A stretch of 61,530 nt of DNA, the filler included, from Coriobacteriales bacterium (lineage in GTDB: Bacteria; Actinomycetota; Coriobacteriia; Coriobacteriales; UBA8131), in assembly GCA_031263105.1 (NCBI GenBank). It is 5 parts of 5 records of this genome, joined end to end, with 100 filler letters (N's around TTAATTAATTAA, not from the genome) between each part and the next. Parts side by side here need not be neighbours in the genome. Positions count along the whole stretch, not along the records: positions 1 to 13,545 come from JAISGJ010000094.1; positions 13,646 to 29,549 come from JAISGJ010000126.1; positions 29,650 to 38,269 come from JAISGJ010000141.1; positions 38,370 to 56,772 come from JAISGJ010000195.1; positions 56,873 to 61,530 come from JAISGJ010000099.1. The stretch is one strand, 5' to 3'. Shown here piece by piece: positions 7,145-56,984 of the stretch. The position numbers and the translations under genes are program-made. Numbering within the stretch: position 1 is the first letter of the stretch; each line of letters begins with the position of its first letter. The notes under the pieces were generated by a model. That model was not told the DNA's origin. It did not search any database and was given only the letters and a program-made list of their open reading frames with translations.

Positions 7145-7171
7145 GCTGTCATTCTACCGCAGCGAACCGTC

Positions 7172-7445
7172 GTGTGTGTTCACACCCCCACTGCCATCCC
7201 GAGCCCCCACTGTCATTCCGAGCCCCGTCGAGGAATCTTCGGGTTACCGTTCACACCCCACCGTCATTCCGGGCCCCGTCGAGGAATCTTTGGACACGCA
7301 GTGTCCAACGGCAGGTCAGGAAGCCGTTCGACCGGCAGTCGACCGCTTGCGCGGTCGAGGATCCCTCGACGGACTCGGGATGGCAGTGGGGGCGCGGGAT
7401 GACAGTGGGGGCTCGGGTAGATGACAGCAAGGGTGTCACAGTAAC
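7172..7445. mobile_element. Composite palindromic MITE-like repeat with 8-bp TSD GAACCGTC
   Basis: CCCCACTGTCATTCCGAG arms, inverted ATGACAGTGGGG arms, ends in GTAAC; GAACCGTC at 7164-7171 and 7446-7453. Confidence 0.75.
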
Positions 7446-7573
7446 GAACCGTCTGCCGCAGGCACCGAAAAACAAAGAGACGGCTACCTGAGCAGTAGCC
7501 GTCTCCAAAATCCCAAGCACGCCCGTCACACACCTTCAACAGGAGCAGGCGCCGCAATTGAGGGAAGCGCCGA

Positions 7574-9208
7574 TCAGTACATCCCTCCGCCTCCGCCGCC
7601 CATCATGCCGGCGAGCGCCGCAGGATCAAGCCCCTCCTTGGGGATCTCCGTGACCGTCGCCTCGGTGATGAGGATGAGCGCGGCAACGGACGCCGCGTTC
7701 TGCAGGGCGGTGCGGGTGACCTTGACGGGGTCGATGACGCCCATCTTGATCATGTCGCCGTACTCGCCTGTCACGGAGTTGAGGCCCTGGCCTGCCGAGA
7801 GGGTCTTGACCTTCTCCACGACGACGGAGCCCTCGTAGCCTGCGTTGTCCGCGATGACGCGCAGCGGTGCGGCCAGCGAGCTGCGGACGATGTTGATGCC
7901 GACCTGCTCCTCGTCGTCTGCGACCTTGATCTTGTCGAGGGCGGGCAGCGCGTCCAGGAACGCCACGCCGCCGCCGGCGACGATGCCCTCCTCGACAGCC
8001 GCACGGGTCGCCTGCAGGGCGTCCTCGATGCGGGCCTTGCGCTCCTTCAGCTCGACCTCGGTAGCCGCGCCGACCTTGATGACGGCAACGCCGCCCGCGA
8101 GCTTGGCAAGGCGCTCCTGCAGCTTCTCGCGGTCGAAGTCGCTGTCGGTGTTGTCGATCTCGGCCTTGATCTGCGCGACGCGCGCATCGATGTCGGCCTT
8201 GTTGCCCGCACCGTCCACGATGGTGGTGGTGTCCTTGGTGACGCGCACGGTCTTGGCGCGACCGAGCTGGTCGAGGGTCGTCTGGTCGAGCTTCATGCCG
8301 AGGTCCTCGGTCACGACCTCGCCGCCGGTGACGATGGCGATGTCCTCGAGCATGCGCTTGCGGCGGTCGCCGAAGCCCGGCGCCTTGACCGCGACGCAGC
8401 TGAGGGTCCCGCGCAGACGGTTCAGCAGCACCGTCGCCAGCGCCTCGCCCTCGAAGTCCTCGCTGATGATGAGCAGCGGACGGCCTGCCTGCATGACGGA
8501 CTCGAGGATGGGGAGGATGTCCTGGATGGAGGTGATCTTCTGGGAGGTGATGAGGATGTAGGGGTCCTTGAGCTCCGCCTCCATGCGGCTCATGTCCGTC
8601 GCCATGTACGGCGAGACATAGCCCTTGTCGAACTGCATGCCCTCGACGGTCTCGATGTCGATGCCGAAGGTCTGGCTCTCCTCGACGGTGATGACGCCGT
8701 CCTTGCCGACGACCTGCATGGCCTCGGCGATCTTGTCGCCGATGACCTGGTCGCCTGCGGAGATGGCGCCGACGTTGGCGATCTGCTTCTGGTCGTCGAC
8801 CGTGTGGGCGGCGGACTTGACGCTCTCCACGACGGCCTCGACGGCCTGCTCGATGCCACGGCGGATGGCGAGCGGGTTCGCGCCGGCGGTGACGTTGCGC
8901 AGGCCCTCGTTGACGATGACCTGTGCGAGCAAGGTCGCGGTGGTGGTGCCGTCGCCGGCCACGTCGTTCGTCTTGACGGCGACCTCGCGCACCAGCTGCG
9001 CGCCCATGTTCTCGACCTTGTCCTCAAGCTCGATCTCCTTGGCGACGGTCACGCCGTCGTTGGTGATGAGCGGTGCGCCGTAGCTGCGCTCGAGCGCAAC
9101 GTAGCGGCCCTTGGGGCCAAGGGTGACCTTCACTGCGTCGGCGAGCTTGCTGACGCCCACGGCAAGCGTTCCGCGCGCTGCCTCGTCGAATTTGATTTCC
9201 TTTGCCAT
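7574..9208 (-). CDS. groEL: Chaperonin GroEL
   Basis: MAKEIKF start, [17 protein letters not shown] and GGM tail. Confidence 0.99.
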
Positions 9209-9223
9209 ATGCCCAGAGCCTCC

Positions 9224-9514
9224 TTAGTCTTCCAGAATCGCGTAGATGTCGTCGGCGCGGAGGATGAGCACATCCTCACCGTCCACCTTCACCTCGGTGC
9301 CGCCGTACTTGCTGTAGATGACGCTGTCACCCTCTTTTACCTGCGGCTTTATCAGGTTTCCCTGATTGTCCAACTTGCCTTCCCCGACGGCGATGACCTT
9401 CCCGCGCTGCGGCTTCTCCTGTGCGTTGCTTGCGAGCACAAGGCCTGACGCGGTGGTGGTCTCGGCCTCGTCCTGCTTGACGATGACCCGGTCTCCCAAC
9501 GGTTTAAGACTCAT
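9224..9514 (-). CDS. groES: Co-chaperonin GroES
   Basis: [17 protein letters not shown] and [10 protein letters not shown]. Confidence 0.99.
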
Positions 9515-9560
9515 GTACCTGACCTCCTTCTATCGACTTTGATTAGGTCCTTACGTAGAC

Positions 9561-9587
9561 TTAGCACTCAAAGGGTCAGAGTGCTAA
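9561..9587. promoter_or_regulatory. CIRCE element (HrcA operator)
   Basis: Exact TTAGCACTC-N9-GAGTGCTAA upstream of groES. Confidence 0.97.
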
Positions 9588-9765
9588 GGGGCGGAGAAGA
9601 TGATACTGCAACGCCGCTTCTTTGCAAGGGGATATGGCCGCACGCCTCCCCCTTGTCACGTAACTGTAATCTTGATGCAGCAATCGTTTTCAGGGCTGTG
9701 CCCTCCGCACGGGGGGTGCAGGGGCGCAGGCGGGCGCGGCCTGCGGATGCCTGCGGATGCCGCTC

Positions 9766-55038: not shown

Positions 55039-55365
55039 TCAGTACAGGAGGAACACCGGGTAGCCCACCAGGTAGATGAGGACCCTGAACAGCAGGGAGG
55101 TCGTGACGGTCACCAGAAGGGCGATGCCGGTCAAGGCACCGGAAACGTCGGAAGCGCCGGGTGCCCCGGCGATGCCGGTTGCCTCGGAAGCGCCGGCGAT
55201 ACCGCCGCCGGCAGTCCCCGCTGCCCCGGCGACGCCGGCAGCCCCGACCTTCCGCTTTGCGGCGATGGCGCAGGACAGCGCCACGAGGGCGCACACGACA
55301 GAGCCCCAGAACGCGAGGGCGCCGTCGCCTGCGAGGATGTAGGCCGCGAGGCTGTCGGAGGAAAT
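55039..55365 (-). pseudogene. C-terminal fragment of a DmsC/NrfD-like membrane anchor
   Basis: Hydrophobic ALAFWGSVV... and LLFRVLIYLVGYPVFLLY*; no start of its own. Confidence 0.5.
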
Positions 55366-55371
55366 CCAAAC

Positions 55372-56331
55372 TTTTGGATTTCCTTGGCCTGCCACCAGCC
55401 ATGCTCCTGGAATGCGGCGATGTACTCGTCCCAGGTCCGGTACTTCGGCGTGACCTCGTCGAAGCGCGTGCCGTGACGGGTGACGGTGGGCCGGCCGTCT
55501 TCGACCTGCCAGGTGGAATACGTCAGCTCGTCGTCGCTGATCAGCTTGATGGCGTCCGCCAGCTGCCACTCGATGTCGGGCCATTCGTTGCCCGGCTCGT
55601 TCGTCCAAGGCACTCCCATACGCTCGAAGAGCGCCATGACGATCTCCGGGTCGTAGGTGGCCTCCGCAGGCGGCTGGACGCACTTGACCGTCGCGCCCAT
55701 CGCCCCCGCCGAGCCCTGGGAGGCACGGGGGGAGTTCAACTCGATCCAGTGCGCGACGGGCAGGATGATGTCGGCCGCGTCGGTGGGGGGTGTGCCAGAG
55801 GTTGAGGTCGACGAAGAAGTCGAGGGAGCACAGGGCATCCCAGGCCCTTGCCGCGTTGGTCTGGCTCATGAAGTTGCCTGACTCGTTCCAGAGGGCGCGC
55901 ACGGGGTAAGGGTCGCTGTCGAGGACGGCGTCCCACAGCGACGAGCCGTCGCACCAGTACTGCCACCAGCTGATCAGCGGGAACCTCTCGATGCCCAGCT
56001 GCTTGACGTTGATCTCCGCAGGCGGCGTGGAGGCGCCCGGCGCCCAGGCGCTGAAGCCCTGCAGGTCGCCGTCTATGGGGACGATGGTCGGCCCGCGATG
56101 GCCTCCCGGCGTGTCCATGTTGCCCGTGATGCCCACGAGGTTGTCGAGCGCACGGCAGTTCTGGATGGCGTTGCAGGCGTGCTCGACGGCCAGCATGTAC
56201 TGGATGCCGCCGTTGCCGTAGCCGGTCTTCGGGTCGAGGCGCGTGGCGTAGACGGTGGCTGCGGCCTCGATCTCCGCAGCGGGAATGCCGGTGATCTCCT
56301 CGGCGGTCTGCGGGTCGAACTCGGCCGCACG
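55372..56331 (-). pseudogene. Internal fragment of a molybdopterin oxidoreductase, frameshifted
   Basis: AEEITGIPA..ITGNMDTPGG..DPYPVRA..LDFFV..WHTP, frameshift at the G-run 55785-55790, then ADIILPVAHWIE; both termini missing. Confidence 0.8.
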
Positions 56332-56366
56332 CTAAGCCCGTCGGACGACGCATCGGAAGGGAATGC

Positions 56367-56633
56367 ATGAGGGCTGTGCGGACGGAGCATCTGAGAGAGT
56401 TCGTGGTGCTGGCAGAGCGCGGGAGCTTCACGGGCGCGGCGCACGAGCTGCATCTGACGCAGTCGGCCCTGAGCAAGCACATCGCCGCGCTCGAGCGCGA
56501 GTTCGACGTGGAGCTGTTCGTGCGCGACCGCGCAGGGGTCAGGCTGACCAAGGCGGGCGACGCGCTTCTCGAGAGGGCCCTGCAGATCGACCTCCTCCTC
56601 GCCCAGACCCGCAGGACGTTGCGCAACGAATAG
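56367..56633 (+). pseudogene. LysR-family HTH only (truncated regulator)
   Basis: LREFVVLAERGSFTGAAHELHLTQSALSKHIAALE..LFVR..LTKAG; stops at 88 aa. Confidence 0.75.
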
Positions 56634-56670
56634 GCACCCGAGCAATTGCCGTTCACAGGATGCCCAATTC

Positions 56671-56772
56671 CCCTGTCACAGGTCACACCCCCACTGTCAC
56701 AGGTCACCCCCCCCCCCCCCCCCCTGTCACAGGTCACACCCCCACTGTCATTCCGAGCCCCGCCGAGGAATC
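56671..56772. repeat. Tandemly repeated left end of a MITE-like element at a contig end
   Basis: CTGTCACAGGTCACACCCC repeats, then CACTGTCATTCCGAGCCCCGCCGAGGAATC. Confidence 0.7.
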
Positions 56773-56872
56773 NNNNNNNNNNNNNNNNNNNNNNNNNNNN
56801 NNNNNNNNNNNNNNNNTTAATTAATTAANNNNNNNNNNNNNNNNNNNNNNNNNNNNNNNNNNNNNNNNNNNN
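56773..56872. other. Assembly gap/contig spacer
   Basis: N run containing TTAATTAATTAA. Confidence 0.98.
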
Positions 56873-56984
56873 GTGTCCAAAGATTCCTCGGCGGGGCTCG
56901 GAATGACAGTGGGGGCTCGGAATGACAGTGGGGGCTCGGAATGACAGTGGGGGCTCGGGATGACAGTGGGGTGTGTGCAGTAAC
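56873..56984. repeat. Right half of a MITE-like element with 4 x 19-bp arm, ending GTAAC
   Basis: GGGCTCGG(A/G)ATGACAGTGG x4. Confidence 0.8.

Follow-up and report, generated by a model that had tools for sequence, protein, structure and literature searches.

A family of palindromic repeats in the draft genome of a Coriobacteriales bacterium (GenBank assembly GCA_031263105.1) was analysed over a stretch of 61,530 nucleotides, filler included, which we call the window. The family probably consists of gene-less miniature transposons of high copy number, moved in trans by a transposase that makes target cuts with an 8-bp stagger and is likely to be of the DDE type. Each element carries conserved outer inverted ends of ~20 bp, which enclose a pair of hairpin arms. 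Nine two-ended and six partial elements occupy 13 intergenic places and account for 4.2% of the window.

When both strands were searched with the 18-mer CCCCACTGTCATYCYGAG, allowing up to 2 mismatches, 31 matches were found, compared with a mean of 0.01 in 100 shuffled sequences. The two-ended elements lie at 7172-7445, 12339-13341, 32578-32743, 35164-35345, 38073-38235, 45714-45876, 46794-47047, 52936-53141, and 54690-54875. As is typical of prokaryotic MITEs (miniature transposable elements with inverted repeats), the copies are short (163-274 bp), numerous and gene-less. With all arms written in one orientation, the outer end reads GTTAC-NN-GTTCACACCCC, and GTTAC-NN-GTTCACACCCC-ACTGTCAT is present as a terminal inverted repeat at both sides. 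The outer end continues into ACTGTCATTCYGAGC, and after a variable loop comes CGAGGAATC. The inner arm, YGTCATTCYGAGC-(loop)-CGAGGAATC, is of the type YGTCATTCC...GGAATC, and its loop varies among copies and may contain extra hairpins. Between the arms lies a core of two or three GC-rich hairpins in either orientation, and modules are reshuffled among copies. The most similar pair (38073 and 46886-47047, 91% identical) both carry target duplications. No duplication is present in the most divergent copies (~60-67% identity to the reference copy at 38073), and the copy at 35164, at 84% identity, also lacks one.

New copies were inserted with an 8-bp duplication of an arbitrary target. The copy ends were set by the conserved tips, and the 8 bases outside them were then compared. 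The two flanks were identical (8/8) in three copies, with GAACCGTC at 7164/7446, GCGACAAA at 38065/38236 and ATTCCGAG at 45706/45877, and matched at 7/8 positions in a fourth, with CGTCCTTT/CGCCCTTT at 46786/47048. Random 8-mers at the same spacings reach at least 7/8 with a frequency of 0.00114, and the best of 72 mismatched pairs of left and right flanks was 5/8. The four duplicated words have no common consensus. A duplication of fixed length and variable sequence, as expected of a MITE, is found in 4/9 two-ended copies, one of which is a nested insertion. The flanks of the 12339 copy, CCATGAAC(G) on the left and CCATGGAAC on the right, may represent a decayed fifth duplication, which was not counted. 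In the nested insertion, the 163-bp copy at 45714 landed within another, solo arm, which it splits cleanly. Excising this copy together with one ATTCCGAG restores ...CCCCACTGTCATTCCGAG|CGCAGCCGAGGAATC, which is 1 base off the arm consensus of other phyla. Judged from this reconstruction, the split arm is an internal stand-in for an empty site.

These results confirm the observations of an initial annotation of the window and support part of its interpretation, namely a non-autonomous family that is bounded by inverted repeats, carries real 8-bp duplications at the four positions given above and contains a repeated inner arm like that of repetitive extragenic palindromes (REPs). Two copies (38073-38235 and 45714-45876) are exactly 163 bp long, and the copies at 35164 and 54690 are without a duplication (3/8 and 2/8), as the annotation had also noted. 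Its question of whether the flank matches exceed chance was answered, within the window, by the two controls. The GTTAC...GTAAC ends that it described are conserved in the family, but the left end of the 7172 copy is GTGTG. Its item reaching to 56984 cannot be kept as one copy: 56726-56984 consists of two halves at contig ends, and the copy at 13646 stands at a contig start.

The element tips were supported independently by the source metagenome. Contigs, not raw reads, of three termite-gut runs were compared with the window, and contigs break at every copy. Some match the window exactly up to 45876, others from 54690 and from 56730, and then continue with other sequence. The summed contig depth over the elements was 800-2000 per bin (positions near 8,000-11,000), compared with 23-25 over single-copy sequence. 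This shows that hundreds of look-alike copies are present in the community, not necessarily in one genome.

A 163-bp copy folded as single-stranded DNA forms one long hairpin that is closed by the ends and has a three-way branched core (-66.5 kcal/mol, z -12 relative to shuffles), and the opposite strand folds similarly. In an alignment of seven copies, 12/61 consensus pairs keep pairing through changes on both sides. These pairs are mostly in two core hairpins; one position, for example, is GC in three copies and AU in three. In seven related sequences, such covariation is suggestive rather than a test.

The inner arm is also found in other phyla. The 19-mer CCCCACTGTCATTCCGAGC occurs exactly in at least 46 stretches, from Dehalococcoidia, Acidobacteriota, Bacteroidota, Phycisphaerae, Gemmatimonadaceae, Nitrospira, Patescibacteria, Clostridia, and others. 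In four genomes carrying the motif, 5/5 small GIY-YIG genes sit between such arms. The five proteins match PF01541, with a weak match to UPF0213 structures (E 0.011), and score below every NCBIfam cut-off. With an alignment of these proteins, 80 GIY-YIG loci of many phyla (L256-L335) were fetched. At 59 of the 80 loci (74%) the gene has the arm core GTCAT[TC]C[TC]GA no more than 250 bp away, at 41 (51%) on both sides, and the density of the core is 3.9 per kb near the gene but 0.21 per kb beyond 500 bp, a 19-fold local enrichment.

According to Chenal et al. (2025, PMC11893778), Ssn are small GIY-YIG proteins that bind the NTS, defined in Neisseria as CGTCATTCCCGCGMAVGCGGGAATCYRG, as single-stranded DNA and cut it a few nucleotides upstream. 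The ssn genes are flanked by NTS-like motifs on one side in 71% and on both sides in 42% of cases, a repeat-gene-repeat layout that these authors liken to an insertion sequence. The arm shares with the NTS and the SRM of Ssn the order of tag, palindrome and tail (CGTCATTCCC...GGGAATC in the paper, TGTCATTCCGAGC...CGAGGAATC in the window), as well as the ATTCC/GGAAT ends of the stem and the C that follows it, and the motif is likewise oriented, intergenic and clustered. It differs in its stem, which is ATTCC-GA-GC / GC-GA-GGAAT in the window arm and a perfect ATTCCCGC stem in the published motif. The published degenerate SRM search sequence gave 0 matches in the window and a mean of 0.94 in 50 Markov shuffles. 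Because the arm core clusters around small GIY-YIG genes in many phyla, the arm would nevertheless belong functionally to the Ssn-type repeat class, though it is missed by the printed SRM pattern.

The outer ends differ from the arm in this respect. Transposon ends or duplications are not reported in the sections of PMC11893778 considered here. We delimited 32 arm-gene-arm units of 388-808 bp, in which the inverted repeat ends 0-6 nt past GTCAT in all but one, where it runs on for 18 nt. None of the 32 has the outer ends or a duplication, and their 8-bp flanks at a fixed register match at 0-5 of 8 positions, as by chance. Among the matches listed for gene-less doublets in other phyla, no outer extensions or duplications were present. 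Since the gene-bearing units lack both features, the outer end of 19-20 nt and the duplication appear to be special to this lineage and look like a second, separate layer on the hairpin doublet. This fits the earlier proposal that the hairpins are packaged in a different transposon shell.

One copy, at 12339-13341, has both arms interrupted. One arm contains a 668-bp IS200-family unit (12622-13289), inserted without duplication between GTCAT and TCCGAG. The unit begins with TGCCAT, ends with CTTAC, and has its own hairpins, unlike the element ends. It encodes a Y1 transposase, tnpA (open reading frame (ORF) 12746-13162, minus strand, 138 aa), which matches PF01797 (E 1.5e-34) and reaches 134.9 bits on the NCBIfam IS200 model (cut-off 55), compared with 31.6 bits for the RAYT model (cut-off 80). 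The opposite arm contains, at the same position, a 78-bp gene-less insert (12384-12461), again without duplication, which begins with TGCCAT and ends with CTTAT. The 668-bp unit and the 78-bp insert thus behave like an IS200/IS605 element with a miniature derived from it, both of which land 3' of a fixed word, and the arm seems, from these two junctions, to be a landing site of the IS200-family element. The junction word CTGTCATTGCCAT gave 0 matches in 335 loci. The IS200-type Y1 enzyme does not behave as the mover of the larger element. The initial annotation had placed the mover outside the window. This holds in that no DDE or GIY-YIG gene was seen there and no transposase other than the IS200-type Y1 was found, but a Y1 transposase is present in the window, as part of a separate IS200 element that landed in an arm.

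Relatives of the elements were sparse. The search for elements in 401 Coriobacteriia genomes gave 1 weak match. A 14-mer was present in 2/80 relatives of the related Coriobacteriales genome G005, and a 15-mer had 0 copies in the five genomes closest by TilS. This patchy distribution fits a selfish element that expanded recently in one lineage. A looser 17-mer search gave 28 metagenome loci, of which 21 lack the arm core and two (L223, L243) continue like an arm. The genomes nearest by GroEL (76%) and TilS (51%) are too distant for a site-by-site comparison. The copies in G005 and in a second related Coriobacteriales genome, G411, have other tips and no clear duplication. The same doubled half-arm is found in both (L252 in G005, L254 in G411) at the orthologous site after the same gene, and some insertions thus predate the split of these species. 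Between the arms of a ~600-bp family member in G005 (L127, ~1015-1606) lie ~300 bp that are non-coding and apparently structured; no open frame with a recognisable product was seen there. PF03050 (IS66, a family with 8-bp duplications and GTAA ends) is absent from G005 and G411, which is uninformative.

In the model that we favour, a transposase encoded elsewhere in the genome would bind the outer ~20-bp ends and act in trans, making 8-bp staggered cuts in the target that would lead to the 8-bp duplications. Fixed-length duplications of arbitrary sequence beside inverted ends are a hallmark of DDE transposases, and for this reason a DDE-type enzyme is the most likely candidate. The arm pair would have been captured as cargo, a hairpin doublet in a different transposon shell, and the hairpins may be kept by selection on single-strand structure. 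A number of observations weigh against this model. The duplication is the single observation from which the DDE class is deduced. The flanks of 5/9 two-ended copies match at 0-3 of 8 positions, and at refined ends an 8-bp match was still not seen by eye. No autonomous copy or transposase with the same ends was found among the 55 ORFs of the window. The outer-end pattern had 0 exact matches in public genome contigs and in metagenome contigs, the arm-end pattern had 0 matches in viral contigs, and in the 401 Coriobacteriia genomes a 17-mer, searched with 2 mismatches, did not exceed its reversed control in frequency. Plasmids were also without the outer-end pattern. The search that the initial annotation had proposed, for an autonomous element or nuclease with the same ends, thus came back empty from the window, public collections, plasmids and the 401 genomes. 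There were no empty sites among the metagenome joints listed; contigs end at each copy, and nothing follows from that. A DDE transposase does not need covarying hairpins inside the element; these hint at an enzyme that reads single strands. The tandem arrays of half-arms described below are left unexplained.

We considered it unlikely that the elements derive from arm-nuclease-arm units by loss of the gene and owe their movement to an Ssn-like GIY-YIG single-strand nuclease whose gene lies elsewhere in the genome. The insertion-sequence-like layout noted by Chenal et al. would speak for such an origin, as does the occurrence of the arm type beside small GIY-YIG genes (59/80 loci in many phyla and 5/5 genes in four genomes). 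The element hairpins covary, and the inverted arms would put one cut near each 5' end. Against these points stand the 0/32 gene-bearing units with outer ends or an 8-bp duplication and the lack of a GIY-YIG homolog in the window (best E 0.57). G005, the sole related genome with similar elements that was searched, gave only a GIY-YIG match in a frame of 636 aa. To our knowledge, no strand-transfer activity has been assigned to the GIY-YIG fold. Moreover, the characterised Ssn cuts a few nucleotides before the tag (PMC11893778), whereas the elements end 19-20 nt before it. It is similarly doubtful that the widespread Ssn-type hairpin repeats have here been caught transposing. An Ssn-like nuclease would then have been built into a genuine transposition machinery that produces 8-bp duplications, or a hairpin doublet and transposon ends would form a two-enzyme hybrid, in which one enzyme cuts single-stranded hairpins and the other joins the ends. 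If this were true, either route would be a new way for REP-like repeats to colonise genomes.

Movement by a Y1 transposase of the IS200/IS605 or RAYT type, with the elements being REPIN- or PATE-like, is less probable again. The palindromic hairpin doublets are REPIN-like, a Y1 gene does lie inside one copy, and the GTTAC tips resemble TTAC, the target of IS608. However, Y1 transposition makes no target duplication, yet 4/9 copies have one. The gene fits the IS200 model and stays below the RAYT cut-off, and it sits in a unit with its own ends inserted in an arm; the mini-copy at the same spot of the other arm indicates that this unit targets the arm. The family resembles REPIN/RAYT systems and PATEs in its hairpin doublets and in having a Y1 transposase gene in the neighbourhood. 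REPINs are tied to GTAG-tagged REPs that flank a RAYT gene, whereas the elements have no GTAG tag and the Y1 gene here is IS200-type with its own ends. PATEs have no inverted ends, no duplication and a fixed left target, a description that fits the 78-bp insert and the 668-bp insertion sequence and not the family. We regard as the least probable explanation that the repeats are not, or never were, mobile as units, but multiplied through recombination, slippage and gene conversion, with a role in the host as hairpins at transcript ends or for mRNA stability. All copies are intergenic and several directly follow stop codons, modules are shuffled between copies, tandem half-arm arrays point to local amplification, 5/9 copies have no duplication, and two related species have kept half-arms at an orthologous site (L252/L254), all of which this explanation would accommodate. 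It does not readily account for three perfect and one 7/8 duplications of unrelated sequence exactly at the conserved tips, for the clean nested insertion, or for the patchy occurrence among relatives (2/80, 0/5 and 1/401). We thus retain transposition in trans by an 8-bp-stagger enzyme as the probable explanation.

By design, the family is closest to QMITE2 of Coxiella burnetii; by arm sequence, it is closest to the NTS/SRM motifs and to the CGTC-tagged REPs. QMITE2 (Wachter et al. 2018, PMC5896051) is 150-190 bp long, with inverted ends of 25-29 bp and variable direct repeats of 7-11 nt. It is mostly intergenic or in 3' untranslated regions, its truncated copies resemble bare REPs, its internal REP hairpin is targeted by an insertion sequence, and a partner transposase is not named in the passages considered here. 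This architecture matches that of the window family, in design only and as compared by description, and the landing of IS1111 in the QMITE2 REP parallels that of the IS200 unit in the arm. The hairpin is of the GTAG type and the invader IS1111 in QMITE2, whereas the window family has a YGTC/NTS-type hairpin, an IS200-family invader and a host of another phylum. Because the hairpin types differ, common descent is unlikely. The CGTC-tagged REP superfamily, which includes dRS3 and some Rickettsia palindromic elements (Di Nocera et al. 2013, PMC3733652), shares with the arm a short palindrome, an unpaired tag ending in GTC, A-T pairs at the stem start and units that are often head to head, and it has no dedicated transposase according to that paper. 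The window arms do not carry the CGTC tetranucleotide: the tag is TGTC in nearly all of them, with a CCGTC variant at 7259. They also differ from CGTC REPs in their variable loops, which can hold extra hairpins, and in their position within a larger element that has inverted ends and duplications. The initial annotation had presented the family as an undescribed system, which is too strong a claim: QMITE2 is the same in kind (PMC5896051), and the arm class has been linked in print to Ssn nucleases (PMC11893778). Motif strings occurred in 25 papers; judged by title, the 20 of these that were listed appear to be primer matches. In the literature, including work on Ssn and NTS since 2024 and on GIY-YIG together with MITEs or duplications, no paper joining both ideas was found, the supplements of the Ssn paper being outside the search.

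Every copy sits between genes supported by Pfam, and several directly follow stop codons. The reference copy (38073-38235, plus strand, 163 bp) has GTTAC...GTAAC tips and is flanked by GCGACAAA at 38065-38072 and 38236-38243. The composite copy at 7172-7445 (274 bp), between groEL and tilS, consists of a solo left arm with a doubled half-arm followed by a full element, with GAACCGTC at 7164-7171 and 7446-7453. The split solo arm (45690-45713 and 45877-45899, plus strand) is located between two genes of an oxidoreductase operon; the inserted copy has GTTTC...GAAAC ends. The copy at 46794-47047 (plus strand, 254 bp) contains five 23-bp half-arm units in its left end. The copy at 35164-35345 (minus strand, 182 bp) carries its core in the orientation opposite to that of 38073, and one of its ends is longer by 20 bp. 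Three copies are divergent and without duplication. The copy at 32578-32743 (166 bp) begins 6 bp past a stop codon, between convergent genes; its left tip has no GTTAC, and its right tip is ACTGTAAC repeated three times up to 32765. The copy at 52936-53141 is short at its left end, where GTTAC is followed at once by ACCCC, differs in its internal modules and has an ill-defined right tip; an ORF overlapping it has no homology over that stretch, and the true start of this ORF probably lies further downstream. The copy at 54690-54875 (plus strand, 186 bp) has GTTAC...GTAAC tips and lies between convergent genes.

Among the other partial elements, 13646-13677 (minus strand) is an outer arm directly behind an artificial join, and 28164-28497 (plus strand) is a tandem array followed by an arm and the first hairpin. 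A solo arm at 35375-35475 (minus strand) has a loop enlarged by four copies of a 9-bp repeat and a hairpin, and ends 19 bp ahead of prfA. The left end of a copy at 56726-56772 (plus strand) is cut off by the contig end, and the right part of a copy at 56873-56984 (minus strand), at a contig start, contains four 19-bp half-arm units and has GTAAC as its last bases. Tandem arrays of half-arms or half-arm-like units, always on the outer side of an arm, are found at 28164-28399 (20 bp x 11.8), 46803-46915 (23 bp x 4.9), 56893-56971 (19 bp x 4.2), and 7185-7226 and 7376-7417 (19 bp x 2.2 each). Such arrays also occur in Chloroflexota genomes and other phyla (L022, L041, L003, L215); taken together with those of the window, they have periods of 19-28 bp and up to 12 units. 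The array units meet after GAG, a border that is also one edge of the ATTCCGAG duplication.

The window has a G+C content of 65.7% and contains eight 44-base N runs, in pairs around TTAATTAATTAA linkers. The design of these joins (N44-TTAATTAATTAA-N44, at 13546-13645, 29550-29649, 38270-38369, and 56773-56872) indicates that it consists of five draft-genome contigs joined artificially. A Pfam scan of the 55 ORFs (41, then 14) assigned ordinary chromosomal genes, including folate genes, ftsH, tilS, groES/EL, purM/purN, ychF (plus-strand ORF 32871-33935), prfA/prmC, several molybdopterin oxidoreductase operons, LuxR regulators, and metG. The closest GroEL sequences are from Coriobacteriia genomes (76% identity), and the closest TilS match is 51%. 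One termite-gut metagenome run contained 97% of the words sampled from a 10-kb stretch of the window, and a second run contains a strain of roughly 93-95% identity. The Rfam search of the window gave three tRNAs and no other match. Two contigs start with runs of 74-85 C (27-111 and 38370-38443) and one has a G-rich low-complexity end (13350-13545), which are probably sequencing or assembly artefacts. Two tandem repeats are unrelated in sequence to the element family: 17 bp x 3.7 at 45622-45684, directly ahead of the split solo arm, and 10/20/40-bp units at 42002-42081, upstream of an oxidoreductase gene.

The means by which CGTC/NTS-type palindromes multiply have not been explained in print: Di Nocera et al. 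find no dedicated transposase, and Chenal et al. (PMC11893778) offer no account of their spread. The published SRM pattern misses an arm type that accompanies Ssn-like genes in many phyla, and an IS200-family element seems here to use the hairpin arm as a landing site. With its clean duplications and a nested insertion, the present family shows that such hairpins can ride in a genuine transposon shell and reach very high copy numbers, and it supplies a concrete element with defined ends for the hunt for the enzyme.

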